DNA of 64,000 nt from Deltaproteobacteria bacterium (GCA_016200585.1 JACQEN010000195.1:3939-67938), one strand, 5' to 3'; shown: positions 970 through 58,185, counted from the first letter of the stretch. The notes: a model not told the origin generated them from the sequence alone. Numbers and translations are program-made.

Positions 970-1461
970 TCATTGCTCTCCGGTCACCGCATGGACGTAG
1001 AGTGGTCGACCAATATCGATCGCCGAACCGATGATCTGTTGTACATAGAGCTCCTTTGCCTTCACCCCCCATGTGCGCGGGCTCGTCAGGGGGTTGAAGT
1101 TGTTTCCTCCAACAGGAACAGATGCCCCGACAACCTCGGTAGCTGTCTCGGCAACTTTGAAACCACCGAGCGCCGCCCCGGCGGCCGTATCGATGAGAAT
1201 GTCTTGGACGGTTTTGTGTCCCCCGAGGAGGTTCGCGGTGACGTCGTATGAGAGGCCTCCGGCAGCTCCGGATAGCGTCGGGCTCTTTGAAAAGACCGCG
1301 ACCGCAACCGACACCACAGCGCTTGCGGCCCCGGCAACCGCACCGCGCAGCACCGCTTGAGCAAAGGCGGCGTCAAACCGGTGACCGCACTTGTAGGCGT
1401 CGTAGCCCTCCGATATCGCACCCGCGATTGCCCCGATTCCGGCGACGATCAATAGCGGGTT
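970..1461 (-). other. Variable C-terminal (toxin) domain of the RHS protein: 163 aa after the DPSGQ core boundary, glycine-zipper/hydrophobic character
   Basis: The DPSGQ codons are at 1462..1476 (checked on the DNA). The tail is NPLLIVAGIGAIAGAISEG..LRGAVAGAASAVVSVAVAVF..SGAAGGLSYD..DTAAGAALGGF, with repeated small-xxx-small (G/A) spacing in hydrophobic stretches. Confidence 0.6.
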
Positions 1462-34041: not shown

Positions 34042-36072
<2,031 letters not shown>

Positions 36073-36255
36073 TTATACAGCCCATGGCGGCTTCGGCAAT
36101 TGGCGCAAGGGCCTTGCGGCGGTTTCTTGTGGGTGGGGGGCGAGAGGCTCACGAGCTCAGGGCTCGGCAAAATGGAAATTGACATTCGCGCGGTTGTCAC
36201 GGAAGCTACCGCTCCACCGCTGGTGAACGGAACACGATACGTGCTGAGTCGGTTG

Positions 36256-38982
36256 ATGGTCAAAGAAGCGCTGCAGCTCCTGCTGGCTGTAGCGGTGGGG
36301 TTGGCCGGGGTACGCCTCGGTTACGCCCAGTCCATTTGTCTCGGGGACGTGGACGGCAACAATCGAATCAACGTTGCTGATGCCGTTGCTCTGGAGTCGA
36401 TTCTTTTTCTCGACCAAGCCGATCAGATTGCCAATCCACGGGCCGATGCCAACGCCGACGGATCCGCAACGGTTGCGGATCTGACCGCGATTGTGATGAT
36501 GAACGGAGAGCCTTGTTCGTTTCCATCGTCGACGCCGACGCGCTCCCGGACTGCGACGCGCACCCCCACGGCTACGCTCACCTCTACCGTCACGCGCACA
36601 GCCACGTTCACGATAAGCCCCACCGTCCCCCCCGGCAGCACGGCCACAGCGACGCCTACGCCGACACGGCCTACGGCAACCCCGTCCATCACGCCCACGC
36701 CGACGATTTCCGCGACCTTGACGGCGACGCTGACGCCGACGGCTGTTTGCGCCGTCCAGCAGGTCGGCTTGGGCACGTTCAACGGATCGCTCGATGCGAA
36801 CGATTGTAGCCGGTCATCCGGCGGCGAGGTTCGATTCACCGACGTCTACCAAATCGTTGCTGCGCCGGGGCAGGCGATCAAGGTGGACGTTCAGCCCACC
36901 GGCGATTCCGCCATCTTGCCCTTCGTCAGCGTGATCGACGGTAACGGCCAGTTCGACCACGTCAGCGGCTACCCACCCGCAGAGTTTGTCGTGAGTGGAT
37001 CATCGCCATATCAAATTTACGTAACGACTGCCCCTCTCTCGGCGCAGATGTTGGGGGCCTACCGGCTGACGATCAGCGCTCGTCCCTGCCCAACGCCGCG
37101 GGTCATCAACTCCGCCGTCAGTTTGGCAGCGACGCTGAGCGACAGTGACTGCCCCGAGCCGAGCACGGTGTCGACAAGCGGTGCTTCCGATCCGGCCGAT
37201 ATCTACACGTTCACCGTGACGCAGGTGCCGACGCAGATCGACATCGCGATGCGCCAACAGCTCGGAGACGACGAGATCGATCCGGCGTTCGCGGTCCTCG
37301 GGCCGGATGGCTACGAGGTGATCACTACCGACCAGCTCGACGACACCGTTGGCGGCCAGTTTGGAACCGACGCCGGCGGGCGCTTCATGGCGTTGCAGAC
37401 CGGGACGTACACGATCATCGCACAGGGCGGCATCGGTCACTACATTTTGCAGGTGCTGTTTCCCGCCTGCAATCCAAAGCGCAATCTGACCAACATACCT
37501 TCCGACCGTCCGTTGGTGTGTCCTGGCCAGCCGGGCCCCGGATGCACCGGAACCTTGTACGGCGATCGAGCCTTCGGCACGTGTGGGGCGCCCTTGGCCT
37601 TACCGAACTCGATGGATGAGGTGCCGGAACCCAGTGCCGGTGCCGACCTGTATACGTTTACGGGGCAGGCCGGTGACGTGGTAAGCGTCGAATTGACCGT
37701 CCCCGACGACGACGCCTATCTCTTCCTCATCGGACCGAGCCCGGGGAACGCGGTGATCGCCTTCGACAACGATAGCGGTCCGCTCGGTTTGGTCCCTGAC
37801 GCGCAATTGGCCGCCACCCTTCCGCTGAGCGGTACGTACACGATCATTGCGTCGAATACGTCGACGCTCATGCCGCCCGACCCCCAAGACCCAAGCGTCG
37901 TTGGCGACGTGTTGCCGTACACGATGTATGTGCAAAAGTGTCCGGTTGCGGGCATCCTCGACGCAGTTTCAGGTACGCCAACCAACAGCTCGTTTTCGGT
38001 TTCGAACTGCATTGGCTTTGGTGGGGTTCCGTTCCGTAGCTACGCGGTGGCGGGCTCGGCCGGCCAGTTCCTCACGCTGACGATGCATTCCGACGCTCCA
38101 GAGATCGATCCATTCGTACGCCTCATCGGACCGGACGGCAGCGTTTCCAACAACGACAACGACCTCTTCTCGCCCGACGGACGCGACGCACGCGTCAACC
38201 GCTTCTTGCCTGCCGACGGAACCTATTTCCTCGAAGTTTCGAGTGCGTTGGCGGGCGGTAGCGTCGACACTGTGGGAAGGCCGGCTTATACGGTGCGAGC
38301 ACAGCGCTGCGCCGTCTCGTCGGTGGTTCCGGGAACCATCACCAACACCGTCGTAAACGGGATACTGCAGGACGGCGACTGTGCCCTGGACGATGGCCGC
38401 AGACTCGATGCAATTGCGGTAGCCGCGCCGACGCCAATGCGGGTTGTCAGTATCAAGCCACCGGACAACACCTGCGTCGTGGGTCTGCTCAGCAACGGAG
38501 AGAACGTGCTTGGAGACCGCTGCACCGCAGATATCGTTGATCTCCCAATGACGGCGCCTGGGACCTATGGATTTGTGATTGCCAGCAGCAGCCCGACATT
38601 CCGTGGGGCATACGCAGCGAAGCTCAACACCTGCCCGATCACCCCTTTGACCTATGGCGCTGCGCTTGACGCCTCGCTGTCCAGTTCGTCCTGTGTCGGT
38701 GTCGATGGCGTTGCCGCAGACTGGTATTTCGTTCGCGGCCCTTCGGGTTTGATACAGTTCAACGAAGGCATCAGCGGAATCGTCAGAAGTACCTTTCCCT
38801 TTGCAGGAACCTTGGTTGATCACTTCGGCCGCACGTCGCTTCACGACATCTTCTACGACGATCCAGGTAGCTTGTTCGACGACGGCACGAACCTCGGCGT
38901 TCTCGTCAAGGTGGCGAGTGATTCGCCGAACGCAACGGGCGCTTACTCCATTGCGGTCGATCAGGCTGTCTTCCGGCAGTAG
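36256..38982 (+). CDS. Secreted protein: dockerin-like module, PT linker, six tandem Cys-delimited PPC-like modules
   Basis: The start MVKEALQLLLAVAVGLAGVRLGYAQS is at 36256; the ORF-track start 35905 overlaps ligA. Modules carry the PPC-like pattern, e.g. TDVYQIVAAPGQAIKVDVQP..VSVIDGNGQ..GAYRLTISARPC; ADIYTFTVTQVPTQIDIAM..AVLGPDGYEV..GTYTIIAQ; ADLYTFTGQAGDVVSVEL..GTYTIIAS; FRSYAVAGSAGQFLTLTM..RLIGPDGSV..GTYFLEVS. Confidence 0.75.
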   Translation: MVKEALQLLLAVAVGLAGVRLGYAQSICLGDVDGNNRINVADAVALESILFLDQADQIANPRADANADGSATVADLTAIVMMNGEPCSFPSSTPTRSRTATRTPTATLTSTVTRTATFTISPTVPPGSTATATPTPTRPTATPSITPTPTISATLTATLTPTAVCAVQQVGLGTFNGSLDANDCSRSSGGEVRFTDVYQIVAAPGQAIKVDVQPTGDSAILPFVSVIDGNGQFDHVSGYPPAEFVVSGSSPYQIYVTTAPLSAQMLGAYRLTISARPCPTPRVINSAVSLAATLSDSDCPEPSTVSTSGASDPADIYTFTVTQVPTQIDIAMRQQLGDDEIDPAFAVLGPDGYEVITTDQLDDTVGGQFGTDAGGRFMALQTGTYTIIAQGGIGHYILQVLFPACNPKRNLTNIPSDRPLVCPGQPGPGCTGTLYGDRAFGTCGAPLALPNSMDEVPEPSAGADLYTFTGQAGDVVSVELTVPDDDAYLFLIGPSPGNAVIAFDNDSGPLGLVPDAQLAATLPLSGTYTIIASNTSTLMPPDPQDPSVVGDVLPYTMYVQKCPVAGILDAVSGTPTNSSFSVSNCIGFGGVPFRSYAVAGSAGQFLTLTMHSDAPEIDPFVRLIGPDGSVSNNDNDLFSPDGRDARVNRFLPADGTYFLEVSSALAGGSVDTVGRPAYTVRAQRCAVSSVVPGTITNTVVNGILQDGDCALDDGRRLDAIAVAAPTPMRVVSIKPPDNTCVVGLLSNGENVLGDRCTADIVDLPMTAPGTYGFVIASSSPTFRGAYAAKLNTCPITPLTYGAALDASLSSSSCVGVDGVAADWYFVRGPSGLIQFNEGISGIVRSTFPFAGTLVDHFGRTSLHDIFYDDPGSLFDDGTNLGVLVKVASDSPNATGAYSIAVDQAVFRQ
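36337..36516 (+). other. Dockerin-like double Ca-binding-loop module (PPC protein)
   Basis: CLGDVDGNNRINVADAVALESILFLDQADQIANPRADANADGSATVADLTAIVMMNGEPC. Confidence 0.55.
36526..36745 (+). repeat. Thr/Pro-rich linker (about 73 aa)
   Basis: STPTRSRTATRTPTATLTSTVTRTATFTISPTVPPGSTATATPTPTRPTATPSITPTPTISATLTATLTPT. Confidence 0.8.
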
Positions 38983-39092: not shown

Positions 39093-42000
39093 GTGGTGCG
39101 GTCGTCGACAAATTCACAATTTCCGAAGCTGAGAGCCCTGCGATGGCAGACAGCTTCTGTGGTGGTTTCAATTGTGGGTTTGCTAAGCGGCTGTGGTGGG
39201 GGTGGGAGCGGCAGCACAACGAATGCTCCGGGCGGCTTGGCGCTTAGGGCTCTTTGGGAGCGATCTTCCACGGCGCATTCGTTGTTTCGGCCGAAAGCCT
39301 TCCAGGGCGGCTCGGAGCTTCCAGCCAGTGTATCGACGATCGTTGTGCGAGTCGGAGCTACGCAACGCGTCGTCGATCCGCATTGCGAAGCCGTGAACGG
39401 CGACTTCCCGTGTCGGCACGTCGAGATCGACGGATTGCAGCCAGGGCCGACGACCGTCCAGGTTGTCGGCTACGACGTGCCATTCGCAGCGGCAAGCACC
39501 ATCGATCAATTTGATCTTGCGCCTTCGTTCCGCAGCGATCGGCTCGATGTGATGATCCATGCCGGACAGGTGGCGGATGTGGAAGTTGATGTATTGGCTC
39601 AGCCGTTTGTTGCCTCGATCGACCCGTCTCCAGGCGCTACCGGGGTCTTCCGATCGACCCCGTTGAGCTTCCTTGTCGTCACCGCCGCCAACAGCATCAA
39701 CCTCAGTTCGATTCAAGTCGATGTCAATGGTTCTCGGGTCGTCGACGCCGGCGACCCGACGGATGGGGCACTGCTTGCCGATTGCAACGACTTGGATCCA
39801 GAAGCCCAACCGTGTACGCCCGGCGGCGCAAAGGGTGTGAGCGGCTTCTTGATCACCTACCAGCCGCTGGATGCATTTCCATCGACGACCCCGGTGACGG
39901 TTCGAGTGCAAGCGAGCGATTTGAACAGTCCGGCCCGCTCTGTCGACTTCTCGTATGCCTTTACGACCGGCACGCTTGCCGCAAGTCCGACACCGACGTG
40001 GACGCCGAGCTTGACTGCGACCCCGACCGCGACGCCGACGCGAACGGAAACGCCAACGCAGACACCGACGCCGACGGTTACGCCATCGAATACGCCGACC
40101 CCTTCCTTTACGGCGACGAGCACGGCTACAGAAGTACCGTCGGCGACGCCAACCAGCACGTCGACATTCACGCCGACGCAAACGGCTAGCCCGTCGGTGA
40201 CGCAAACGCCGACGGACACGCCCACCGACACACCGACCGAAACGCCGACGTTGACTCAGACGGCGACGGCGACGCCGACGGATACGCCGACCGCGACATC
40301 GACGGAGACGCCGACGTCTACAGCGACGAGCACGCCGACGGCGACCGCGACGTTGACCGAGACACCGGTCGCTTCGTTCACGCCGTCATCGACCGCGACG
40401 GAGACTGCGACGGCGACGGTGACCGATACCGCGACTGAAACCGCCACGCCGACGCCTTCGCAAACGCCGTCGTCGACGCCGACCAGCAGCGACACGCCGA
40501 CCGACACGCCGACGCCGACCAACACGGAAACACCGACGGAGACGCCGACCGTCACCGATACGCCGACCTTGACGGCGACCGAGACTCCGACGGAAACCCC
40601 GACGCAAACCGCGACGCCGACGGATACACCGACACCCACCGAAACATCGACGGCGACGGTGACGGCGACGCCAACCGAGACGCCAACGCCGACCGAAACC
40701 GCGACCGAAACGGCTACGCCGACTCAGACCGCGACCCCCAGCGACACACCGACGGTTACCGAAACACCCACGGAAACGGCGACGCCGACGGTGACCGACA
40801 CGCCGACCGAGACGCCCACCCCAAGTGAGACGCCGACGGCAACCGATACTGAGACAGTCACCGAAACACCGACCGAAACGGCAACACCGACACAGACGCC
40901 GACGGCAAGCGATACGCCTACGGCGACTCAGACATCCACCGATAGTCCCACGCCATCGGTGACGGCGACGGCGACGGAAACACCGACGGAGACGGCTACA
41001 GCGAGCGCCTCCGAAAGTCCGACCGCTACGCCAACCGAGACAGCGACGGAAACGCCGACCGACACCGCGACGGAGACGCCGACCGAGACCGTTACCGAGA
41101 CGCCGACAGAAACCGCTACGGAAACTGCGACGCCTACGGAAACGCCGACGGTCACGGCTACCGCAACGGCCACCGAAACCGCCACGGAGACGCCCACACC
41201 GACGATCACGGATACGCCCACCGAGACAGCGACCCCGAGCGTAACGGCAACGCCGACGGAGACGGCCACGCCGTCAGCGACGTCGACCGCAACGTCTACG
41301 GCCACGCCGACGGTGATCCCGCGCGCCTATGTAAGTAACGCCGGCAGCAACAGCGTGTCGGTAATCGATACGACCTCGAACACGGTGGTCAGCACCATTC
41401 CGGTTGGTACGAGCCCGTTCGGCGTTGCCGTAAGCGGTCAGGGGACGCGTGTCTATGTGACCAATCAATCCAGCAACAGTATGTCGATCATCGATGCCGG
41501 GGTGAACGCCGTCATCAATACGGTTGGCGTCGGACGCGGTCCAGTCGGATTGGCGGTGATGGCCACGGGAGACAAGGTGTACGTTGTGAACAAGATCGAC
41601 GCCAACGTGTCGGTTTACGACGTCAACAACGGGATCCTCGGCAATATCGCGGTCGGTAACTCGCCCGTCGGCATTGCGGTGAACCCAATTCAGGCAAGGG
41701 CCTATGTCGCCAACCAATTGAGTAACTCGATTTCGGTCATCGATACCAACTTCGATGTTGTCGTCGATACCTTGTCGATTGCCAGCCAGCCCTTCGGCAT
41801 CGCTGTCAGTCGCGACGGCGGTCGCTTCTACTTTACCAACCTCGGTAACAACAGCGTTGTCGAAGTGGAAACGACGACCAATACGGTTGTTCGCACCTAT
41901 CTGCTCGGCAACAACACGCGACCGTTTGGTGTTACGGTAAGCCCGGATGGAACACATGTGTACGCTGCTAATGTCCAGGGTAACTCGGTATCGGTTATCA

Positions 42001-42251
42001 ACACGGTGACGCACGCGCTGACCACGGTATCCCTCGGCACCGGTAGTGCTCCGTTCGGCGTTTCGGTGAATCCGGAAGGCACCTTGCTCTACGTTGCCAA
42101 CTCGAATCGAGGGAACGTGTCGGTGATCGACGCTTTGACGAACGCAGTCGTGCGCACGATTGCGGTTCAGTCGATGCCGACTGCGTTTGGCCAGTTCATT
42201 GAACCCGCAGCGGCCCAGTCGGGCGGTACGGGTTCGCTCATTGTGCCGTAA
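39093..42251 (+). CDS. Giant lipoprotein: lipobox, Ig-like region, about 440-aa acidic Thr/Pro stalk, C-terminal YVTN-type beta-propeller
   Basis: The signal and lipobox are [23 protein letters not shown] starts at 39093/39096 follow aggagg. Propeller repeats are [71 protein letters not shown] and [17 protein letters not shown]. The C-terminal end is MPTAFGQFI. Confidence 0.8.
39984..41313 (+). repeat. About 443-aa acidic Thr/Pro/Glu/Asp low-complexity stalk (degenerate [ED]TPT / TATPT units)
   Basis: e.g. [54 protein letters not shown]...[52 protein letters not shown]. The DNA is dominated by acg/acc-ccg-acN-gaN codon strings. Confidence 0.9.
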
Positions 42252-42268
42252 GGGTGGGGAGACCAGAC

Positions 42269-43807
42269 GTGAGGCTGCGGGTTATTCGGCGCTTCTTGGT
42301 AAGCGGTATCGTGGTGCTTGCACTATCCGCGGCGGCGCGTGCCAACGTTCGATCACAAGCTTTGTACGCGCGCGGGCTGATTCCATTTAATGCCGGCCGC
42401 TGGGCCGAATCGTTTCAATTGTTCAACCAAGCGGTGGAAGCAGACGCAAACGATGCTTTGGCTTGGTACTACCGTGGACTGACCTCGGCGCGCCAGGGCA
42501 TGACCGATGAGGCGGCGCATGACATTGAAAAGGCGCTGCAGATTTCACCCAACCTGCCGCACGCCACCCTCGATCTGGGCATCGCCTACTTCAGTGCAGG
42601 CAAGCACGCCGATGCCAAACGTACGCTGCAGAAGGCAGCGGAGCAGGGATATGAGCCGCGTACCGTTGCGTTCTTTCTTGGACTCGTCTCGTATCGGCTG
42701 GGTGAGGACAGCGAAGCGGCAAACTACTTCAAGGATGCCAAGGCTGACCCGGAGCTTCGCGGCGCCGCTCAATACTACTTGGCGTTGGTCGAAGTGAAAC
42801 AGGGCGATACGGAAGCGGCTCGATCGGAGCTCGCGGGTACGGCTCACGACCTGTCGCAGTCCGAGATCGGTCGCGCGGCGCAAGATTATATCGCCAACGG
42901 CGGTGCTGCGCCGACTCGTCCGGCGACTCGGTGGTCCCTCTACGGAGACCTGCACTTCGAGTACGACAGTAATGTTACCATCGGCCCGTCGAGCACTTTT
43001 GCCAACACTCGCGACATCAGCGGTCGATCCGATGAGCGTGTCGTCATCGGAGCCGGGGGGCGTTACAGCTTCCTCGATTCGGATGTCTGGTCGCTCGTTG
43101 GGACCTATGATTTTTCACAGAGCGTCCATTTCGATTTGACGCAGTACGACCTGCAGGGGCACCGGCTGGGTTTGGAACTGGCTTCGCACCGTGGCATCCT
43201 GCGTTATGGCATCGCCGGCAACTACGATTTCTTTGCGCTCAACTATCAGAGCTTCTATCAAGAGGGATTGGCGACCCCGTGGCTGACCTTTGATGAAGGT
43301 GGGGTCGCCGCAACCCAGCTTTACTATCGTTTGCGCGGCCGCGATTTTTTCCGAGCGCCGTACGATCCCGGGCGTGACGCGATCAATCACGCCTTCGGGC
43401 TGCGCCAATTCCTGGAGCTGGGCGATCCTGAACGCGTTTTGTTTGCCGGATACCAATTCGATATCGAAGACACCGTGTCGAATGGGCCGCAGGGAAAAAC
43501 ATTCCAGTACGAAGGTCACCAATTTGAAGTAGGGTTGATGTTGCCGATTTCCGATTCGGCTCATTCGGATGCTGCCTACCTGTTCCGGCACGACGACTAC
43601 GACTCGGTGAACAGCGGCTTCGGAAAGAAGCGCCGAGACGACGAGCACCAGGTGGTGGTCGGCCTTGGTTACACGCTTAATGCCAACTGGGCCTTCGATG
43701 TTCATTACATAGGAACCTTCAACGACTCGAACATTCGCCAGCAAAGCGTTTCGTTCTTCGACTACGACCGGCATATCGTATCGTTCGGCGCCAGGTTCAC
43801 CTACTGA
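42269..43807 (+). CDS. Outer-membrane protein with an N-terminal TPR domain and a C-terminal beta-barrel of about 14 strands (Slam/DUF560-like architecture)
   Basis: The ORF track start is 42254; GTG 42269 after ggggaga gives the signal MRLRVIRRFLVSGIVVLALSAAARA. The TPR-like helices are AESFQLFNQAVEADANDALAWYYRGLTSARQGMTDEAAHDIEKALQISPN.. I count about 13-14 alternating amphipathic strands by eye (WSLYGDLHFEYDSN .. RHIVSFGARFTY), with a terminal aromatic residue. The gene starts 2-17 nt after the lipoprotein stop. Confidence 0.7.
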   Translation: MRLRVIRRFLVSGIVVLALSAAARANVRSQALYARGLIPFNAGRWAESFQLFNQAVEADANDALAWYYRGLTSARQGMTDEAAHDIEKALQISPNLPHATLDLGIAYFSAGKHADAKRTLQKAAEQGYEPRTVAFFLGLVSYRLGEDSEAANYFKDAKADPELRGAAQYYLALVEVKQGDTEAARSELAGTAHDLSQSEIGRAAQDYIANGGAAPTRPATRWSLYGDLHFEYDSNVTIGPSSTFANTRDISGRSDERVVIGAGGRYSFLDSDVWSLVGTYDFSQSVHFDLTQYDLQGHRLGLELASHRGILRYGIAGNYDFFALNYQSFYQEGLATPWLTFDEGGVAATQLYYRLRGRDFFRAPYDPGRDAINHAFGLRQFLELGDPERVLFAGYQFDIEDTVSNGPQGKTFQYEGHQFEVGLMLPISDSAHSDAAYLFRHDDYDSVNSGFGKKRRDDEHQVVVGLGYTLNANWAFDVHYIGTFNDSNIRQQSVSFFDYDRHIVSFGARFTY

Positions 43808-43815
43808 GGCTGATT

Positions 43816-44712
43816 ATGCGGAAACCTACGAAGCGAGTTGTGGCAGTTGGTGCGGCAGTGGTGGTCGTGGTGCTCGCTCGGCAACTGCAGGCGCAAGGCG
43901 AGGCCGGTGTCTTCGCCGCCGTACAAGGCAAGGTCGAGGTTCAGCGTCGAGGTGCGTGGCAAGATGCGACCATCGGCACTCCGTTCCAGGTTGGCGACCG
44001 AATGCGGACCGGAGCGGGGGATCGCGCCAAGCTGGTGCTGCGCGACGACAGCGTTCTCGACATGGCGCCCGGATCCGAGATCGTCGTCGATGACATGGTA
44101 ACGGATCCGGCGCAGCAAAAGGTCCAGTCGGCGCTGCGGTTGTTTCAGGGGCGAGTCCGCGCCTGGGTCAGCGAAGCCTATCATCAGCCGCGGGCTCACT
44201 ATGAGATCGAGACACCGACCGCGGTTGCCGGTGTGCGCGGCACGGAGTTCATTGCGGCGTATGATATCGACACGGAGGCGACCGAAATCATAGGGTTGGT
44301 CGAGGACGTCGACGTCGTCGGCAAGATCGCGGCAATGAGCGGCGGACGCGTGAGGATCGGCCCGAATATGACCACGCGGATTCTCAAAGGACGCCTACCA
44401 ACCGTCCCGGCACGCGTAGACGAAGGCCACTTGCGCCAATACCTCGACAGCTTTGATCTCATCGGTACCGGCCGACGGGATGGACTCAATGTGTTTCATC
44501 CCGTCCTTGCGGGCCGACTCATCGAGCCCGGAGATGTTCCGGGAGGAGCCGAGGAAGCGCCGCAGGAGGCACTGCTTGGTGGCAAATCTCCCGATCTTCC
44601 CCTGGCCGATCGCCTGTCGCTTGATTCGTCCACGAACTCACAACCGCTTCAGGGATTTCGCGCCAGTCCGCCAGGGCAGGGGTCGACCGGTGGTGTCCGC
44701 GTGAATTTTTGA
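43816..44712 (+). CDS. FecR-domain periplasmic/envelope protein
   Basis: The signal is VVAVGAAVVVVVLARQLQAQG. The FecR-type core is GKVEVQRRGAWQDATIGTPFQVGDRMRTGAGDRAKLVLRDDSVLDMAPGSEIVV..YEIETPTAVAGVRGTEF. It starts 9 nt after the preceding stop. Confidence 0.8.
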   Translation: MRKPTKRVVAVGAAVVVVVLARQLQAQGEAGVFAAVQGKVEVQRRGAWQDATIGTPFQVGDRMRTGAGDRAKLVLRDDSVLDMAPGSEIVVDDMVTDPAQQKVQSALRLFQGRVRAWVSEAYHQPRAHYEIETPTAVAGVRGTEFIAAYDIDTEATEIIGLVEDVDVVGKIAAMSGGRVRIGPNMTTRILKGRLPTVPARVDEGHLRQYLDSFDLIGTGRRDGLNVFHPVLAGRLIEPGDVPGGAEEAPQEALLGGKSPDLPLADRLSLDSSTNSQPLQGFRASPPGQGSTGGVRVNF

Positions 44713-44865: not shown

Positions 44866-45114
44866 ATGGCAAGAGTGCGGGGTGCAGGGATCGTGGGGAT
44901 GTTGTTGCTCGCGGGTCTGGTTGCGGGTTGCGGGGCACGCAAGCCACTGATTGATCCGGACGCGGTATCTCGAATCGAAGCTGCGGCAAGCAAGGCTGAA
45001 GCGGCTGCCACCAAGGCAGAAACCGCTGCCAAGAGTGCAGCGGACGCTGCGGCACGAGCCGAAGCCGCTGCCGCCAAGGCTCAGAGCCGTTTCACCAAAG
45101 GACTCAAGAAGTAG
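44866..45114 (+). CDS. Small alanine-zipper outer-membrane lipoprotein (OprI/Lpp-like), C-terminal Lys
   Basis: 82 aa. The lipobox is LLLAGLVAGCG. The Ala-rich coiled coil is RIEAAASKAEAAATKAETAAKSAADAAARAEAAAAKAQ. The protein ends ..GLKK. The RBS gaaggaga is at 44851..44858. Confidence 0.7.
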   Translation: MARVRGAGIVGMLLLAGLVAGCGARKPLIDPDAVSRIEAAASKAEAAATKAETAAKSAADAAARAEAAAAKAQSRFTKGLKK

Positions 45115-45191: not shown

Positions 45192-45452
45192 ATGCAGTTC
45201 GGTATGAAGATGAAGGCGGCAACGGCAGTCGCAGCAGCGTTGGTTCTAGCCGGTGCCACTTCGGGGTGCGCTTGCAAGTCCAGCGCAGAAGACCAAGCCG
45301 CGGTTCAGCGAGTTGAAGCGGCGGCCAGTAAGGCCGAAATGGCAGCGAACAAGGCTGAGGCAGCCGCGAGAAGCGCTGGCGATGCCGCGCAGCGTGCTGA
45401 AGCCGCAGCGCAGAAGGCGGAAGCGATCTTCCAGAAGCACATGCGGAAGTAA
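45192..45452 (+). CDS. Small alanine-zipper outer-membrane lipoprotein (OprI/Lpp-like), tandem paralog
   Basis: 86 aa. The lipobox is LVLAGATSGCA. The coiled coil is RVEAAASKAEMAANKAEAAARSAGDAAQRAEAAAQKAEA. The protein ends ..HMRK. A strong RBS, aaggagaaggagg, is at 45172..45184. Confidence 0.7.
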   Translation: MQFGMKMKAATAVAAALVLAGATSGCACKSSAEDQAAVQRVEAAASKAEMAANKAEAAARSAGDAAQRAEAAAQKAEAIFQKHMRK

Positions 45453-45475
45453 TCTCCTTCTACGGTACGTTAACG

Positions 45476-45510
45476 ATGGGCGACTCGAGATGAGTCGCCC
45501 ATTTCTTTTG
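45476..45510 (+). terminator. Rho-independent terminator: 11-bp perfect stem, 5-nt loop, T-rich tail
   Basis: atgggcgactc (45476..45486), loop gagat, gagtcgcccat (45492..45502), then ttcttttg. It sits between convergent genes. Confidence 0.75.
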
Positions 45511-53002: not shown

Positions 53003-53084
53003 GGAAGGTTCCGGCTGGCGGCGAAAACTTGCGTCGGTAATTTTCTGCGGTTTTTCCGGTCGGGAATTGAGCGAGGAACCTGGA

Positions 53085-53113
53085 TTGCAATTGCGCACCT
53101 GCCGGCGCATACA
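53085..53113 (+). promoter_or_regulatory. Candidate sigma70-type promoter, TTGCAA-N17-CATACA (weak -10)
   Basis: Read directly, about 50 nt upstream of the first stalk gene. The -10 matches only 3 of 6 positions, so confidence is low. Confidence 0.2.
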
Positions 53114-53162
53114 CGGTCGCGCGGTGTGTCGAGAAGGCGCAACGCACGGAGCCGTGGGCGTT

Positions 53163-55451
53163 GTGACAGCGAAAAGAGTAGGAATGGTACTCAGCATTGC
53201 GCTCGGCGCGGTGCTCACTCTGACCGGGGCAGGGTTGGCGTTGCAAGGCGATGCCGACTGCAACGGCACGGTCGATAGCAGCGATATCGCGGCCACGGTT
53301 GTGGCAATCTTCGAGGGATCGAGTTGTGCCGGTGGCGATGCCAACCTCGATGGTGCGCTGACGGCTGCCGATGTGAGCGCTGCGATTCGGATGGTCGGTT
53401 CGTCGCGGGCCACTGCTACGCCGACCGAGACGCCAACAGACACTCCACGCACCGAAGAGTCGCCAAGTCCGAGTGTCTCAGAAACTCCAGGTCCGTCGAC
53501 GACCGCCTCGGCGACTCCGAGCAGCAGCGCCACTGGCACCAAGGATTCAACCCAAACGCTGACCGCCACTGCGTCGCGTACGCCGACGATCGTTCCGACG
53601 ATCACTGCAACCGCTTCGAGCTCGGCCACGGCAAGTTCGACGCCCACCCTGGTGTCGTCCGCGACGCCGACGCAGTCGCCAAGTCCTTCTCCAACCGAGA
53701 GTCCGACGGATACCCCTAGTGCAACGGAATCGATACCGCCATCTGCTTCGCCAACCACTACCGCCACAGTGCCACCGACACAGAGTTCGACGGCAACTGT
53801 TTCGCCGAGTTTCACGCCGACCATTACCGTTACGTTTACGGCGAGCCGGACCGCGACGGTCACGAGAACCCTGACTTCGTCGCTGACCCCCACCGTTACC
53901 GGAACGCCTTCGTATACGATACCGCCGACGCGTACTCGCACGGAGACGCCGACGAAATCACCGACGCGTACGTGGAGCGCGACAACCACGGCGACAGGCA
54001 CGGCCACGCAGAGCCCGACCGAAACGGGGACTGCGACACGAACCGGAACGGCGACTCAAACACCGACGCGGACCGGCACTCCGACCAAAACGGCGACCCC
54101 GACGATGACGGTGACGCGCACGGCGACAGGCTCGCCAACGGAGACGGCAACCAGCACCCAGACGTCAACGCGCACGCCAACGGCAACCGAGACACCGTCA
54201 AGCACGCCGACCGTGACGACAACACCCAGTCCGACGCGGACGGTGACGGCGAGTCGGACGCCAACGTCGACTGCGACGTCGCCCGGATCTCCCACGGCGA
54301 CCGGTACACGTACGCCTACTTCGACTGGGACAGCAAGTGCCTCCCCGACGGCATCCTCAACCGCCACCCGTTCGTATACTCCGTCGCCGACTTTCACCGG
54401 CACGGCGACGGTTCCGGCGACGCGCACCGCCACCTTGACACGGTCGCCAACGCTGACTGGGACGCCGACGCGCACGGCAACGGCAAGCTCGACGCTGCAG
54501 CCGACGCTGACCGCGACGGTGACGCAAACCCCGACCGGAAGCCGCACTCCAACGGGTACTCAGACCGCCACGCCGTCACGGACAGCGACGCGCACGCCGA
54601 CGTCATCGCCCACGCTCAGCGCGACGCCAAGCTTTACGGGAACAGGAACCCGCACCCCGACGCGGACGGCGACCTTGACGGCGACCGCAACGGCAACGTT
54701 CACAACAACGCCGAGTGCTACGCTGACGCGAACCCCGACGCCGACGCCGACGCCGACACCCTCGCCGACGAAGACCGCCACACGTACCGCGACCGCTACG
54801 GCAACGGCGACGCAACCGGCGATTGGGCCGCACGTGCTGACGCTAGCGGTTGTCACCAGTTTCGATGGCTGCGTGTTCTGTTGTGAACAGAGTTGCGCGC
54901 GTACTCCTACACCAACTCCGGCCTTCGACGGACTGGGGCGGCGAATTTTCACGACGGCGAGCGGGCAGTTCGTACTCGTCGTTGAAGGTGTGGCGGGGGC
55001 TAGCGCGCGGGCGCCCGGGACGTCGCTGCAGCCGTCCTCATCCGACAACCGCCCCGATCTGTGGATCGAGAGTACCAGACCGTTGGGAAATGGCAGCACG
55101 CAAGTTTGCGATACGGGGCCGCCCTCTGCCGGTGGTGGCGGAGTTCCCGCCGTCAGCCCGCCGAGCTTTTCGTCGGGCATCCAGAGCGTTACCGACGCGC
55201 TCAACGATTTTGCCTGCCGCTTCGACCCGTCGGTCGGCGCGGCTGCTCCGTGTACGGTTTTGGATTCCACACGCGAGCCGCGGTTGATCAACTCGTCTGC
55301 TAGCGTGCAATTCTGTGACTTCGTGGCAACCACGGCGACGTTCCCGCTGGGTGACAGTGTGGTCTCGGTGGCGCTGAGAGACGTTGCCGGCAATATCGGT
55401 CCGACAGCGCAGGTGGTGGTGCACGTTGTGACGCCGACGCCCAAGCCGTGA
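53163..55451 (+). CDS. Secreted 'dockerin-like anchor / about 470-aa Thr-Pro stalk / Cys-rich head' protein, paralog A
   Basis: ORF track 53067..55451. The likely start is GTG 53163 (MTAKRVGMVLSIALGAVLTLTGAGLALQ) or ATG 53184. See the module, stalk and head sub-features. Confidence 0.8.
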   Translation: MTAKRVGMVLSIALGAVLTLTGAGLALQGDADCNGTVDSSDIAATVVAIFEGSSCAGGDANLDGALTAADVSAAIRMVGSSRATATPTETPTDTPRTEESPSPSVSETPGPSTTASATPSSSATGTKDSTQTLTATASRTPTIVPTITATASSSATASSTPTLVSSATPTQSPSPSPTESPTDTPSATESIPPSASPTTTATVPPTQSSTATVSPSFTPTITVTFTASRTATVTRTLTSSLTPTVTGTPSYTIPPTRTRTETPTKSPTRTWSATTTATGTATQSPTETGTATRTGTATQTPTRTGTPTKTATPTMTVTRTATGSPTETATSTQTSTRTPTATETPSSTPTVTTTPSPTRTVTASRTPTSTATSPGSPTATGTRTPTSTGTASASPTASSTATRSYTPSPTFTGTATVPATRTATLTRSPTLTGTPTRTATASSTLQPTLTATVTQTPTGSRTPTGTQTATPSRTATRTPTSSPTLSATPSFTGTGTRTPTRTATLTATATATFTTTPSATLTRTPTPTPTPTPSPTKTATRTATATATATQPAIGPHVLTLAVVTSFDGCVFCCEQSCARTPTPTPAFDGLGRRIFTTASGQFVLVVEGVAGASARAPGTSLQPSSSDNRPDLWIESTRPLGNGSTQVCDTGPPSAGGGGVPAVSPPSFSSGIQSVTDALNDFACRFDPSVGAAAPCTVLDSTREPRLINSSASVQFCDFVATTATFPLGDSVVSVALRDVAGNIGPTAQVVVHVVTPTPKP
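53247..53396 (+). other. Dockerin-like module (paralog A)
   Basis: GDADCNGTVDSSDIAATVVAIFEGSSCAGGDANLDGALTAADVSAAIRMV. Confidence 0.55.
53409..54817 (+). repeat. About 470-aa Thr/Pro/Ser/Ala/Arg low-complexity stalk (paralog A)
   Basis: e.g. [84 protein letters not shown]. Confidence 0.9.
54818..55448 (+). other. Conserved Cys-rich C-terminal head domain (paralog A), unrecognised family
   Basis: AIGPHVLTLAVVTSFDGCVFCCEQSC..GRRIFTTASGQFVLVVEG..RPDLWIESTRPLGNGSTQVCDTGPPSAGGGGVPAVSPPSFS..TDALNDFACRFDP..PCTVLDSTREPRL..QFCDF..FPLGDSVVSVALRDVAGNIGPTAQVVVHV. Confidence 0.7.
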
Positions 55452-58054
55452 ATCGCTCGCCTTTCAGACTCCTGACGGTCGGGATCGCACTGACGGCATT
55501 GCTGGCATCGGCTTGTCGCGCTCAGGCGGCGATTTCCGCGGATCTCAACTGCGATGGTGTAGTGGACAGCGCCGACCTAGCTGTTGCGGTTGCTGCGCTA
55601 TTTGAACCCACGGTAGGCGGTTGTGTCTCCACCGACGTCAACCTTGATGAGCGCCTCAGTGCGGCCGACGTGATATCGTTGATCCGTTCCGCATCTTTTC
55701 TTGCGCCAACTGCGACCGCCACGGATCTACCGTCGCCGACGTTGAGCCTGACTCCATCCCCCGAGGCGACTCGTACATCCGAGCCCACCGATAGCCCGAC
55801 GCCGAGTGTCACGATCTCCCCGACACCCTCGCCACTGCCGAGCTTGTCCCCGTCGGCCACCGTGACCTTCACGGCATCGTTGACCAAGCCGGCGACTCGT
55901 TCACCCACCTCAACGAGAACCTCGGCCGAGGTCCTCGCCAGTCCAACATTCACCGCCGAAGAGATCCCGTCCTCACCTTCGGTGACGCCGTCGGAGGTCG
56001 GCGGCACGGCTACTCCGTCGACCGAGCCCAGTGCCGAAACCACGTCGACCCCTTCGCCGACGGGTACGGAGTCGCCGAGTGCGACCGCCGTGGAAACGGA
56101 AACCGCGACGGCGACACCTTCCCTTTCGCCGCCCCCGACTGCAACCGCAACGGTGACCTCGAGCTGGTCGGCGACCCCGGCGCCAACCGATACGGCTACG
56201 CCGACGCCGTCCATGACCCTGAGCCCGACAATGAGCCCGACAATGAGTCCGACTGCGTCGACCTCCGCGACGCCTTCCCCGATTTTGTCTCCGACACCGT
56301 CGGGCACACCTTCGCGCACGCCATCCAAAACCAGGTCAATGACTCCTACGTCGAGTTTCACGCACACGCCGTCTGCGACGCCGACAACGTCCGCGACTCG
56401 GACATCGACGGCGACCAGCAGTCCGACGGTGACACGAACCCCGACCGAGACCCCGACGTCTACGCTCACGGCGACGCCGACAAGCACGGAAACGCCGTCG
56501 CCAACGTACAGTCCGACACGCACGGCCTCTCCCTCGCGCACACCGACTTCGAGTGCTTCGCCGAGCCACACCCCACTGCCGACGATGACTCCGACCCCGA
56601 GCTCGACCGAAACCGGCACTCGAACCGCGACGCGGACGCCAACCGCGAGCCTGACGCCGACGAGCACGATCACTCGCACCCCGACGCGCACGCCGCTGCC
56701 GAGCTTCACGCCGACGCCGACGGCCACACCGACATGGAGCCCCAGTCCGACCGTTACACCTACAGGGACGCGGTTGCCAAGTCGAACCCCGAGCCCGAGC
56801 CCGACGGGAACCGCGAGCGTCACTCCCACGGCGACGGTGACGGCTACTTCGACGCCGACTCCCTCCGCTACTTCCACACCCACGGTGTCGCCGACTCCAA
56901 CAAACACGCCAACGTTCACGGCCACGCCGACAATCACGGCGACGGCCACGCTGACTGCGACGCCGACCGTAACCCCGACGATTACGATTACGCCAACGGC
57001 GACTCCAACATCGACGGTGACCGCTACGGATTCGCCGACGGCGACCGCGACGGAAACTCCAACGCTGACTCCGTCGCCGACGGAAACCGCTACAGCGACG
57101 CAGACCCCCTCGAGAACAGGTACGTCAACCGCAACGGGATCGCCGACAAGAACGCCGACGCGAACGGCGACGGCCACCTTCACGCCGACGCTGACGCCAA
57201 CGAACACCGCCTCGTTTACCCCTACGGCTACTCGGACGCCGACTCGAACTGGCACGCCGACTCCGACCGGGACGTCCACACCCACGGCGACGACGACATT
57301 CACCCCGACCATCACGCCCACTCCGACCGGTACCCGGAGCGCCACCCCGACTCCTAGTGTGACGCCCAGCGCAACAGCGTCGTCGACGCCGACCGCCTCG
57401 GCGACGACGACGCCAACCGGACAGGGACCGCAAGTTACGTTCTTGGGCGTGCTGACTCGTTTCGACGGATGCGCGTTTTGTTGCGAGGCGAGTTGTGTCA
57501 ACGCGCCAACGCCGATCCCGGAATACGATGCTGAAGGTAGGCGCGTTTACTACGCGTTGTCGGGGCAATTCGTGGTCGTGGTGGAAGCGCGCCCAGGCCT
57601 CAGCGGTGCGGCGGTGGCGACATCACTGCAAGCGGTCCCGCCGGACTACCGACCGGACATTTGGATCGAGAGCTCGCGCGATCTGGGCAACGGCAGTGCG
57701 AAGGTTTGTGATACCGGACCGGCGAATTCGGGCGGTGGCGGCGTGCCCGGAGTCGATCCACCGAATTTCTCCCTCGACCTGCCCGCCGTGACGAATGCCT
57801 TGGTTGATTTCGGCTGCCGCTTCAATCCAGGTATCAGCGCCGCCAGTCCCTGCACCATCGTTGACGCCACCCGTGAGCCGCGGCTGCTTACGGCCGCGAC
57901 GGCTCAATTCTGTGACTTCGTTTCCAGCACGAGCACCTTCCCAAGCGGAGAATCCGTTCTGACGGTCGCCTTGCGCGATACGGTGGGAAATATCGGACCC
58001 ACGGCGCAGATCGTTGTGCGCGTCGCCACACCGACAGCCACACCGACACCCTGA
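55448..58054 (+). CDS. Secreted 'dockerin-like anchor / about 570-aa Thr-Pro stalk / Cys-rich head' protein, paralog B
   Basis: The GTG start overlaps the paralog A stop (GTGA, 55448..55451). The signal is MNRSPFRLLTVGIALTALLASACRAQA. Whether it is cut by SPase I or is a non-canonical lipobox is unclear. Confidence 0.8.
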   Translation: MNRSPFRLLTVGIALTALLASACRAQAAISADLNCDGVVDSADLAVAVAALFEPTVGGCVSTDVNLDERLSAADVISLIRSASFLAPTATATDLPSPTLSLTPSPEATRTSEPTDSPTPSVTISPTPSPLPSLSPSATVTFTASLTKPATRSPTSTRTSAEVLASPTFTAEEIPSSPSVTPSEVGGTATPSTEPSAETTSTPSPTGTESPSATAVETETATATPSLSPPPTATATVTSSWSATPAPTDTATPTPSMTLSPTMSPTMSPTASTSATPSPILSPTPSGTPSRTPSKTRSMTPTSSFTHTPSATPTTSATRTSTATSSPTVTRTPTETPTSTLTATPTSTETPSPTYSPTRTASPSRTPTSSASPSHTPLPTMTPTPSSTETGTRTATRTPTASLTPTSTITRTPTRTPLPSFTPTPTATPTWSPSPTVTPTGTRLPSRTPSPSPTGTASVTPTATVTATSTPTPSATSTPTVSPTPTNTPTFTATPTITATATLTATPTVTPTITITPTATPTSTVTATDSPTATATETPTLTPSPTETATATQTPSRTGTSTATGSPTRTPTRTATATFTPTLTPTNTASFTPTATRTPTRTGTPTPTGTSTPTATTTFTPTITPTPTGTRSATPTPSVTPSATASSTPTASATTTPTGQGPQVTFLGVLTRFDGCAFCCEASCVNAPTPIPEYDAEGRRVYYALSGQFVVVVEARPGLSGAAVATSLQAVPPDYRPDIWIESSRDLGNGSAKVCDTGPANSGGGGVPGVDPPNFSLDLPAVTNALVDFGCRFNPGISAASPCTIVDATREPRLLTAATAQFCDFVSSTSTFPSGESVLTVALRDTVGNIGPTAQIVVRVATPTATPTP
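55538..55690 (+). other. Dockerin-like module (paralog B)
   Basis: ADLNCDGVVDSADLAVAVAALFEPTVGGCVSTDVNLDERLSAADVISLIRS. Confidence 0.55.
55705..57417 (+). repeat. About 570-aa Thr/Pro/Ser low-complexity stalk (paralog B)
   Basis: e.g. TPSATPTTSATRTSTATSSPTVTRTPTETPTSTLTATPTSTETPSPTYSPTRTASPSRTPTSSASPSHTPLPTMTPTPSSTETGTRTATRTPTASLTPTSTITRTPTRTP. Confidence 0.9.
57418..58051 (+). other. Conserved Cys-rich C-terminal head domain (paralog B)
   Basis: GQGPQVTFLGVLTRFDGCAFCCEASC..GRRVYYALSGQFVVVVEA..RPDIWIESSRDLGNGSAKVCDTGPANSGGGGVPGVDPPNFS..TNALVDFGCRFNP..PCTIVDATREPRL..QFCDF..FPSGESVLTVALRDTVGNIGPTAQIVVRV. Confidence 0.7.
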
Positions 58055-58185
58055 ACCTTCCATCAACGATTGCGAAAATCGCGGCTAAAATTGCAAATTC
58101 TGGTTGTTGCAAACAGAAGAACCGGCAGGCATTGAAGGACGCGATCTCAACGCACCACAATCGCAGTCAGGTCCAAACCTATCGC

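Follow-up and report, generated by a model that had tools for sequence, protein, structure and literature searches.

The three closely spaced genes at positions 39093 to 44712 of the window, by which we mean the whole 64,000-nucleotide stretch of DNA that was analysed, represent one instance of an outer-membrane cassette that is widespread, usually comprises three genes and occurs mostly in Binatia. The cassette encodes a lipoprotein, a protein joining TPR repeats to a beta-barrel, and a FecR-domain protein, and the host of the window is itself an uncultured Binatia bacterium. In sequence comparisons the barrel family is large and forms, within the Slam/DUF560 (type 11 secretion) superfamily, a branch that is divergent and non-proteobacterial. 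The cassette would put the Slam/type 11 secretion family outside the Proteobacteria, and would tie that family to CHASE2 cyclase signalling. Our preferred reading, to which we give about an even chance, is that of a putative Slam-type surface-display or signalling module.

All three open reading frames lie on the plus strand, coupled and positioned as the initial annotation had described them. Their conservation as neighbours, which it had proposed to check, extends beyond simple synteny: three to four non-syntenic paralogous copies of the trio occur per genome, in unrelated neighbourhoods, and the trio recurs in other phyla. The FecR gene adjoins the barrel gene directly downstream in 59 of 60 loci. 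The annotation had cast the giant lipoprotein as the barrel's partner, and in roughly four loci out of five the gene upstream of the barrel does encode a lipoprotein that begins C-G-G-G-G and carries a module here called lipoN, but the giant form is not general. Orthologous loci keep the lipoprotein gene in this position. Eight loci have the barrel and FecR genes without the lipoprotein gene, so the barrel-FecR pair can do without the lipoprotein; the partner most constantly associated with the barrel is FecR rather than the lipoprotein. Chance is excluded because the gene order repeats in dozens of independent contigs. At E<=1e-3 the barrel family gathers 2652 clusters, and it comprises at least 1377 clusters, mostly from Binatia.

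Inherited synteny alone might be suspected in the orthologous group, where synteny extends over the entire neighbourhood, from ligA as far as the two alcohol dehydrogenase genes, and Foldseek does match the barrel to general porins as well. A generic small-molecule porin in a merely inherited gene order is nevertheless refuted by the conservation of the paralogous cassettes in unrelated neighbourhoods and other phyla, and we consider it extremely improbable. Overlaps or short gaps between the genes also recur (3-26 nt in the called-gene tables, except in L061 and L062, where 74-149 nt precede the barrel gene), and a periplasmic TPR domain is no feature of porins.

The middle gene has the following parts.

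42269..43807, plus strand: TPR and 14-stranded beta-barrel outer-membrane protein, 512 aa (Pfam, AlphaFold2; alternative start 42254)
42341..42898, plus strand: periplasmic TPR domain, residues 25-210, 11 helices (Pfam, AlphaFold2)
42932..43804, plus strand: 14-stranded beta-barrel domain with the OMP-type C-terminus FGARFTY (AlphaFold2, Foldseek)

As had been claimed, it starts 2 or 17 nt past the lipoprotein stop, depending on the choice of GTG; GTG 42269, with GGGGAG 7 nt upstream, is likelier than GTG 42254. Its product is 100% identical to a protein labelled 'MAG: Deltaproteobacteria bacterium' (P0001) and begins with a signal peptide ending in LSAAARA|NV. Pfam TPR_2, TPR_16 and TPR_19 match residues 40-200. 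In the AlphaFold2 model (mean pLDDT 89.5; DSSP), 11 helices occupy residues 2-210 and exactly 14 beta-strands occupy residues 222-511 (E222-233 to E501-511), settling an earlier count of 13-14. The 14-stranded proteins CymA, OmpG and FadL are among the top barrel matches in Foldseek. The middle protein is exported by Sec to the outer membrane and combines TPR repeats on the periplasmic side with a barrel of 14 strands, the Slam-like two-domain layout of about 510 aa that the initial annotation had recognised.

The comparison with DUF560 that it had suggested gave a divided result. The window protein itself has no match to PF04575, either as the full protein at E<=1 or as the barrel alone at E<=10; paralogues from the same type of cassette do pass. 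PF04575 matches 14 of 41 cassette barrel domains, and three exceed its gathering score of 22 (L023 with 36.3, L033 with 26.8 and L046 with 24.6 bits), L023 covering profile positions 2-249 of 288. These three, all from the same type of cassette, share 35-39% identity with the barrel of the window (E 1e-51 to 1e-64), and we therefore assign the family to a divergent branch of Slam/T11SS. Within the family, PF04575 is the longest and best-scoring barrel match. TPR_Slam (PF24575) reaches 20.2 bits on the window protein, under its cut-off of 35.2, and matches weakly in 29 of 38 distant family members. Profile comparison with three genuine roseobacter Slams, whose profile is thin (Neff 1.7), reached no significance (probability 1-2%); hhalign of the family (247 sequences) gave 2.4% and E 0.019, though collinear over 204 columns, and a metagenome scan for sequences to enrich the Slam profile returned nothing useful.

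The alternative named by the initial annotation, a synthase-dependent exopolysaccharide porin of the PgaA/BcsC/PelB type with unrelated neighbours, draws on the top whole-model Foldseek match, which is E. coli BcsC (9b8a, E 2.5e-11, TM 0.38), on weak NCBIfam matches to PgaA, BcsC and PrsT, and on weak PF10082 (BBP2_2) matches in 14 of 41 members. However, the NCBIfam PgaA/BcsC matches span the TPR repeats only, at 16-19 bits against cut-offs of 858-1043 (for example, 18.9 versus 1043), and those to BBP2_2 are confined to the last 55-95 residues, whereas PF04575 gives the family a longer and better-scoring barrel match. The barrel has 14 strands rather than the 16-18 of PgaA/BcsC/PelB, and the syntenic loci, in which ligA, the PPC/dockerin protein, alcohol dehydrogenases and holA are present, contain no glycosyltransferase or synthase. 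No polysaccharide-porin family fits better than DUF560, and this alternative is largely refuted, with very little probability left to it.

The lipoprotein gene upstream is divided as follows.

39093..42251, plus strand: giant outer-membrane lipoprotein gene, 1052 aa (ORF, translation; lipobox LLSG|C, Cys34)
39192..39992, plus strand: lipidated Cys, Gly-rich tether (CGGGGS) and lipoN module (alignment A4)
39978..41297, plus strand: acidic Thr/Pro-rich stalk, 440 aa, residues 296-735 (composition)
41298..42248, plus strand: YVTN beta-propeller, 7 repeats, residues 736-1040 (TIGR02276, PF21783)

An AGGAGG-like Shine-Dalgarno sequence lies immediately 5' of the start, and the N-terminus (...[11 protein letters not shown]|C) is followed directly after Cys34 by GGGGSGS. 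The earlier description of the protein, with its 1052 aa, LLSGC lipobox, acidic stalk and YVTN propeller, stands except for the stalk length, which is 440 and not 443 aa. The stalk consists of 44% T, 16% P, 12% A and 8% E, with 52 D+E to one K+R, a composition that agrees with strong skews in both AT and GC over 40-42 kb; its length would probably exceed what the periplasm could hold. Seven TIGR02276 repeats (E 5.5e-45) define the propeller, which PF21783 (YNCE) also matches.

Across the family this C-terminal payload varies between none, a YVTN propeller and a parallel beta-helix. Most of the lipoproteins are short, only 300-460 aa, which makes the giant form a special case. The conserved part is the Gly-rich tether together with the 270-aa lipoN module right behind the lipidated Cys, two tandem Ig-like beta-sandwich domains (Ig-Ig) of a kind typical of surface proteins, and the propeller is a variable payload. 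In alignment A4, made up of 42 lipoN sequences that each come from an independent locus, C1 and G2 are almost invariant and two Cys pairs are conserved. The AlphaFold2 model is all-beta (pLDDT 87.7, pTM 0.83), and its Foldseek matches are pilins, RAGE V-C1, FN3 and S-layer SlaB, with no TbpB or fHbp barrel among them. Pfam finds weak Big_5 matches only, in 7 of the 42 homologues, and neither PF01298 nor PF08794 in any of them. The design is cargo-like, with an invariant Cys-Gly start, a conserved N-terminal module and exchangeable C-terminal payloads. As had been anticipated, however, such a substrate is unlike TbpB-type Slam cargo: the C-terminal 8-stranded TbpB/fHbp barrel of that cargo is absent from both neighbours of the barrel gene (42 lipoprotein homologues, 49 FecR partners).

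As a Slam-type display or signalling module, the cassette might work as follows. The lipoprotein would be lipidated at Cys34 and carried to the outer membrane by Lol, where the Slam-like barrel would catch it via its TPR domain and, as the initial annotation proposed, flip it to the cell surface. In place of the 8-stranded barrel at the C-terminus of classical Slam cargo, a family-specific recognition unit may be provided by the Ig-Ig module, while the acidic 440-aa Thr/Pro stalk would keep the propeller far out from the surface. The FecR protein would remain periplasmic and dock on the complex, probably by beta-augmentation through its C-terminal strand, and would link it to an inner-membrane partner, which in 12 paralogous cassettes would be the adjacent CHASE2 adenylate/guanylate cyclase.

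The same components could also form a threaded sensor that secretes nothing, for which RcsF with OmpA/C/F is a known precedent. The Gly-rich tether would then lie inside the lumen of the 14-stranded barrel, the complex would monitor the state of the outer membrane or cell surface, and FecR would relay inward. An invariant, flexible C-G-G-G-G tether right after the lipid anchor, a constant triad of lipoprotein, barrel and periplasmic protein, and signalling enzymes beside the paralogues all suit such a sensor. We nonetheless think it unlikely: the barrel family has a secretion family among its relatives, the large variable payloads on PT stalks resemble displayed domains, and the Pfam and NCBIfam matches of the window proteins include no RcsF or IgaA homology.

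The third gene and the features beyond it are these.

43816..44712, plus strand: secreted (periplasmic) FecR-domain protein, 298 aa (ATG start; PF04773)
44686..44709, plus strand: conserved C-terminal amphipathic beta-strand of the FecR protein, TGGVRVNF (alignment A8)
44866..45114, plus strand: small Lpp-like alanine-zipper lipoprotein 1, conserved 3' of the FecR gene in orthologous loci only
45192..45452, plus strand: small Lpp-like alanine-zipper lipoprotein 2 (its L002 homologue has a weak PF11839 match)
45475..45503, plus strand: terminator-like hairpin with a 13-bp stem and T-run, likely the end of the transcription unit
35905..38982, plus strand: secreted dockerin/PT-linker/PPC-domain protein, upstream of the trio (probable start ATG 36256)

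The gap between the barrel and FecR genes measures 8 nt, where 9 had been given. The FecR protein has a cleavable signal peptide (RQLQA|QGE) and no lipobox; its FecR domain begins near residue 30, and PF04773 matches residues 61-150 (E 1.3e-15, 58.1 bits). All 49 FecR homologues contain PF04773 and no other Pfam domain. The C-terminal pattern G-x-[VLI]-x-[VI]-x-F is kept in orthologues and paralogues, and is missing exactly in the loci that lack the Ig-Ig lipoprotein gene, which suggests that the strand serves interaction with the lipoprotein rather than secretion by the barrel. The upstream protein at 35905..38982 matches Pfam PPC (E 8.5e-15) and Dockerin_1, and its gene recurs upstream in L001, L002, L006-8, L011-15, L017, L019, L020 and L049; it is part of the orthologous locus and lies outside the core cassette.

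A jackhmmer search found no CHASE2 or cyclase ORF in the 64-kb window, whereas a CHASE2 adenylate/guanylate cyclase gene adjoins 12 paralogous cassettes. The order TPR-barrel, FecR, CHASE2 cyclase is shared by these 12 Binatia-type loci, Paracoccus and Shinella. The barrel family aligns by hhalign with the alphaproteobacterial FecR-linked TPR-barrels (probability 90%, E 1.5e-6, 273 columns), hmmsearch with the family gives 20 bits (p 2e-8) on an Azospirillum protein, and PF04575 is the top match of the Paracoccus TPR-barrel among non-TPR (barrel-region) families. These comparisons support homology between the alphaproteobacterial TPR-barrel/FecR/CHASE2 cassettes and those of Binatia, and the attachment of the cyclase in both points to a signalling role, which the initial annotation had not considered.

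The alphaproteobacterial FecR proteins, encoded between barrel and cyclase, raise another possibility: that the barrel's client is FecR itself. It would be secreted, or its C-terminal strand, a minimal form of the T11SS C-terminal barrel signal, would anchor it in the outer membrane. The Ig-Ig lipoprotein would be an accessory or co-receptor, and the whole unit would serve a CHASE2-type signalling pathway as its front end at the outer membrane. In Shinella and Paracoccus (849 and 655 aa), the FecR C-termini match the full TbpB_B_D and FHBP_C profiles, at 22.1 bits against a threshold of 26, and look like those of genuine Slam cargo. FecR is also the near-invariant neighbour of the barrel, even in pairs without a lipoprotein, its terminal strand is kept in Binatia, and NCBIfam names Leptospira FecR-domain proteins as surface adhesins (Lsa33 and LipL45 matches). 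In place of an 8-stranded barrel domain, however, the Binatia proteins have a single terminal strand, and that strand is lost together with the lipoprotein; a FecR domain on the surface could not contact a periplasmic CHASE2 domain. We regard FecR as client as a lesser possibility and keep the lipoprotein as the preferred cargo.

Among known systems, the Slam proteins (Neisseria Slam1/2, Xenorhabdus NilB/HrpB) resemble the window barrel in having an N-terminal periplasmic TPR domain and 14 C-terminal strands in about 500 aa, the strand number reported for T11SS barrels (PMC8406197), and in the adjoining lipoprotein gene. A bona fide Slam encoded on an Alloyangia plasmid with the same layout has a modest PF04575 score of its own, 27.6 bits. 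T11SS has been described as proteobacterial (PMC8406197, PMC12282271), whereas the host of the window belongs to Binatota. The cassette further differs in the N-terminal, Ig-like position and fold of the conserved lipoprotein module, in its obligatory third partner with a FecR domain, and in the lack of neighbouring genes for TonB or TonB-dependent receptors. The 8-stranded cargo barrel domain is missing from T11SS cluster 3 as well (PMC12282271). PgaA, BcsC and PelB likewise fuse TPR repeats to a C-terminal outer-membrane barrel, but the window protein has only about five TPR pairs.

Like the cassette, the FecA-FecR-FecI system pairs a periplasmic PF04773 domain with an outer-membrane barrel, and by this analogy the FecR-barrel pairing plausibly follows the logic of a relay from outer to inner membrane. 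In contrast to FecIRA, the window FecR has a cleavable signal peptide in place of an N-terminal anti-sigma domain or transmembrane helix, the locus gene tables contain neither an ECF sigma factor nor a TonB-dependent transducer, and the FecA barrel has 22 strands and a plug where the cassette barrel has 14 and a TPR domain. CHASE2 cyclases are associated with a FecR-domain protein and a TPR protein in Campylobacterota (PMC9239204). In these CHASE2/FecR/TPR clusters, as in S. meliloti CyaD1-SMc02177 (PMC5498481), FecR is secreted and is not an anti-sigma factor, as in the cassette, although the window copy is without a cyclase. The proteobacterial CHASE2 cassettes lack the Ig-Ig lipoprotein, and the FecR proteins of Paracoccus and Shinella, unlike those of Binatia, are extended at the C-terminus by a long stretch that includes a weakly TbpB-like barrel. 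In S. meliloti the outer-membrane barrel NsrA functions upstream of CHASE2 cyclases (PMC7529298, PMC13001267). The NsrA-CyaK/CyaD pathway (PMC7529298) and the cassettes of Paracoccus pAMI5 and Shinella p1 also count among the closest CHASE2-type systems.

The lipoprotein, barrel and FecR genes form a compact cassette on the forward strand of the window, and all three open reading frames lie exactly where the initial annotation had placed them.

Features of the window
970..6267, - strand: 1765-aa open reading frame; dockerin-like N-terminus, YD/RHS-like repeats
35905..38982, + strand: secreted protein (signal peptide, type-I-dockerin-like EF-hand pair, PT linker, several PPC domains, PF04151); probable start ATG 36256
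39093..42251, + strand: lipoprotein gene, start ...SIVGLLSG/CGGGGSGS, the slash preceding the lipidated residue, Cys34
42269..43807, + strand: TPR and barrel gene
43816..44712, + strand: FecR gene
44866..45114, + strand: first Lpp-like 'alanine-zipper' small lipoprotein gene, with one of the lipoboxes LVAGC and TSGC
45192..45452, + strand: second such gene, likewise with one of these two lipoboxes
45475..45503: strong terminator-like hairpin directly 3′ of the Lpp-like genes
53067..55451, 55448..58054 and 58132..61113, + strand: three tandem secreted-protein genes

The 270 aa that follow the lipoprotein's Cys start gave no match in a Pfam search. They lead into a 440-aa stalk (44% T and 16% P, with 52 acidic residues and a single basic one by composition count) and a C-terminal YVTN propeller (TIGR02276, 7 repeats, E 5.5e-45). 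The barrel gene could start at GTG 42254, 2 nt past the lipoprotein stop, or at GTG 42269, 17 nt past it; the latter is likelier because it is preceded by a GGGGAG Shine-Dalgarno sequence. Its product comprises a signal peptide, TPR repeats and a 300-aa C-terminal part. The FecR gene begins 8 nt past the barrel stop; in its product a signal peptide, PF04773 domain (E 1.3e-15) and low-complexity linker lead to a C-terminus reading TGGVRVNF. The operon probably ends at the hairpin. In sequence searches, the window barrel is 100% identical to a protein of a 'Deltaproteobacteria bacterium' MAG, and its relatives mostly carry the label Candidatus Binatia, phylum Binatota.

Conservation of the three genes as neighbours, which the initial annotation named as a check, holds almost without exception for FecR and at most loci for the lipoprotein. 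Six-frame open reading frames from all loci with barrel homologues were compared with the window proteins and family HMMs. A FecR-domain gene lies 3′ of the barrel on the same strand in 59/60 barrel genes with enough downstream DNA; at L053, the one exception, the gene sits just downstream, on the opposite strand. The upstream gene encodes the 270-aa lipoprotein module at about four-fifths of the loci with enough upstream DNA, including paralogues from unrelated neighbourhoods, and the lipoprotein is clearly absent at L003/L044, L022, L028, L030, L037, L056, L057 and L059. Overlapping genes or short spacers recur across cassettes. Orthologues of the window locus do share wider synteny, running from ligA to a pair of alcohol dehydrogenase genes and taking in the dockerin/PPC protein, the trio and both Lpp-like genes, and only in these orthologous loci do the Lpp-like genes sit 3′ of FecR. 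Conservation of the trio far exceeds such inherited synteny, because it recurs in paralogues of unrelated neighbourhoods; mere synteny without a functional link is effectively excluded.

The initial annotation likened the barrel protein to the surface lipoprotein assembly modifiers (Slam, DUF560). Its strand count and two-domain layout are borne out by an AlphaFold2 model built on 54 homologues (mean pLDDT 89.5), which has 11 helices (residues 2-210) and 14 beta-strands (residues 222-511). The Pfam comparison went against it for the window copy itself: PF04575 (SlipAM) matched neither the whole protein nor the barrel alone, no Pfam family matched the C-terminal 300 aa, and PF04575 was likewise absent from the barrel domains of the 21 closest relatives. 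The link becomes visible only on scanning more distant paralogues, the closest 22 barrel domains being negative. The family is large: a cut-off of E<=1e-3 gives 2652 clusters and one of E<=1e-10 gives 1377 (clusters at 50% identity), nearly all of about 500 aa with a C-terminal barrel. Species-representative genomes yielded 54 barrel loci, with up to 4 paralogues in one genome. Among 41 barrel-only segments from paralogues, PF04575 matches 14 with the best E-value of all families, tying for the most members with PF10082 (BBP2_2; also 14/41). BBP2_2, DUF2490 and DUF2860 also match paralogue barrels, mostly over shorter stretches, those of BBP2_2 and DUF2860 being confined to the C-terminal strands.

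Three paralogue barrels exceed the curated PF04575 threshold of 22 bits: L023 (36.3 bits, E 6e-9, collinear over profile positions 2-249 of 288), L033 (26.8 bits) and L046 (24.6 bits). Two others fall just under it (L036, 21.8; L041, 21.2). Aligned with the window barrel across some 290 residues, the PF04575-positive barrels are 35-40% identical to it (E 1e-51 to 1e-69). Both neighbour genes of the window cassette are also present at L033 and L046; the L023 contig stops before the upstream gene, so only the FecR neighbour is visible. These profile matches place the barrel family within the Slam/DUF560 superfamily as a divergent branch, to which the window barrel belongs by transitive homology, since the paralogues matching PF04575 are its homologues. 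Direct alignment of the family with three genuine roseobacter-plasmid Slams (hhalign) was non-significant, the Slam profile being thin; the Alloyangia one has a TbpB-like cargo gene beside it and reaches 27.6 bits against PF04575. A metagenome scan meant to enrich this profile returned two TPR fragments only.

Structural comparison is less specific. In Foldseek against the PDB the best composite match was BcsC (TM 0.38), followed by the 14-stranded CymA, OmpG and FadL and then generic porins; the best 50 matches were generic barrels or TPR proteins, with no Slam entry among them. PDB sequence searches, whether with the protein, the full alignment or an alignment of the barrel alone, yielded TPR proteins or chance-level FadL (E 0.04) and nothing else. 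Despite the BcsC match, an EPS export porin is effectively excluded as an explanation of the barrel, for which PF04575 gives the best E-value among the paralogues.

The proposal that the lipoprotein is unlike known Slam cargo stands, as Foldseek finds no match to a TbpB, fHbp or HpuA barrel. Homologues of its N-terminus required a profile query, a single-sequence query having given one match. Across 42 aligned sequences, Cys-Gly stands almost invariably at the head of the module, mostly as C-G-G-G-G, and Cys pairs are conserved. AlphaFold2 (72 sequences) models it as all-beta (pLDDT 87.7, pTM 0.83), and the model matches two-domain Ig-like structures, namely Gram-positive pilins, RAGE V-C1, FN3 modules, the S-layer protein SlaB and Bacteroides surface lipoproteins; we therefore describe it as a tandem Ig-like (Ig-Ig) unit. 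Pfam returns a weak Big_5 match to the module and nothing else. Most database lipoproteins (300-460 aa) are essentially the module alone, and larger forms add a PT stalk and YVTN propeller, as in the window, or a parallel beta-helix. The latter occurs in a variant cassette, L071 (730..4762), where a NosD/parallel beta-helix payload replaces the propeller. The design combines a constant N-terminal unit with C-terminal payloads that can be swapped, as expected of clients of a dedicated outer-membrane machine.

Further secreted proteins are encoded nearby. The dockerin/PPC gene is conserved directly 5′ of the lipoprotein gene in orthologous loci, and its product may be a docking partner of the stalked lipoprotein, although nothing resembling a cohesin turned up. 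Each tandem protein at 53067..61113 combines a signal peptide and a dockerin-like motif with a long PT-rich linker (T+P 37-41%) and a C-terminal domain related among the three, and these PT-rich genes explain why GC and AT skew is strong at 54-60 kb. The product of 970..6267 is another large secreted or surface protein of the same MAG.

The cassette FecR proteins are secreted and are not anti-sigma factors; PF04773 is the sole domain in all 49/49 aligned homologues. Nearly all finish with an amphipathic strand, G-x-[VLI]-x-[VI]-x-F. This strand may serve interaction with the lipoprotein, because both are missing together at five loci (L003/L044, L022, L028, L030, L056), a correlation resting on few independent events, as lipoprotein-less loci represent few clades. 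Elsewhere among these loci, L057 FecR ends in ...ITIRVP, L059 is cut at the contig end and L037 retains the strand. In the lipoprotein-less clade, L003 carries a stand-alone response-regulator receiver gene 3′ of FecR (6501..6950).

At 12 paralogous loci the trio adjoins a CHASE2 + Guanylate_cyc gene, mostly directly downstream of FecR; the 64-kb window has no CHASE2 cyclase gene. Similar associations have been reported. CHASE2 adenylate cyclases of Campylobacterota cluster with FecR-domain and TPR proteins (PMC9239204), the Sinorhizobium (S.) meliloti CyaD1 gene adjoins that of the FecR-domain protein SMc02177 (PMC5498481), and the predicted outer-membrane barrel NsrA is required upstream of S. 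meliloti CHASE2 cyclases (PMC7529298, PMC13001267). Plasmid cassettes of TPR-barrel, long FecR protein and CHASE2 cyclase occur in Shinella (p1, L064, 3891..10061) and Paracoccus (pAMI5, L065, 4495..10137), and an Azospirillum plasmid pairs a TPR-barrel with a 298-aa FecR protein. Near the Shinella and Paracoccus cassettes are genes for NHLP-bacteriocin export or for a cyclic-nucleotide-binding patatin. Profile comparison indicates homology between these alphaproteobacterial barrels and the Binatia family (hhalign probability 90%, E 1.5e-6 over 273 columns; Azospirillum 20 bits by hmmsearch), and PF04575 tops the non-TPR, barrel-region families for the Paracoccus barrel (E 0.02).

The Shinella and Paracoccus FecR C-termini match TbpB_B_D/FHBP_C, profiles of the 8-stranded cargo barrel, over the whole profile, albeit sub-threshold (22.1 vs 26 bits), and their C-terminal motifs resemble genuine Slam cargo. 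These ends suggest that the FecR-domain outer-membrane proteins beside CHASE2 cyclases (PMC9239204) could be cargo of the Slam-type secretion system (T11SS). The T11SS literature searched mentions neither FecR-domain clients nor CHASE2; FecR there denotes classical iron anti-sigma factors, another type of protein. The main rival reading is that FecR is the true client and the lipoprotein an accessory: FecR is the more constant neighbour, and the Shinella and Paracoccus FecR proteins have the cargo-like ends. An RcsF-like threaded sensor is possible.

In the reading we prefer, the barrel would carry the lipoprotein to the cell surface, the Ig-Ig module would be its recognition unit, and FecR would act as a periplasmic adaptor or transducer docking through its terminal strand. 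We speculate, with low confidence, that the cassette is an unrecognised non-proteobacterial T11SS branch, with the Ig-Ig lipoprotein and FecR as clients, whose complex would form the outer-membrane entry point of an NsrA-like pathway and pass signals from outside the cell to CHASE2 receptors. If so, trans-envelope signalling and the display of surface receptors on stalks would both have co-opted a secretion barrel, and there would be a structural route to the inputs of CHASE2 domains. The frequent attachment of CHASE2 cyclases, together with homologous alphaproteobacterial cassettes bearing TbpB-like FecR ends, suggests that the published CHASE2/FecR/TPR clusters and Slam-type barrels are one story. 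This touches on how surface lipoproteins cross the outer membrane beyond Proteobacteria, and how signals from outside that membrane reach CHASE2 receptors.

Published accounts (PMC8406197, PMC12282271) describe T11SS/Slam as a system of Proteobacteria and define its cargo by an 8-stranded barrel at the C-terminus. The present family widens this range by a large divergent branch of at least 1377 clusters in Binatota and other uncultured lineages, and adds new fixed partners, an N-terminal tandem-Ig lipoprotein and a FecR-domain protein. In known T11SS cargo the N-terminus is variable and the C-terminal barrel conserved (PMC12282271), whereas the window-type lipoprotein reverses this arrangement, its conserved part being N-terminal and its variable part C-terminal.
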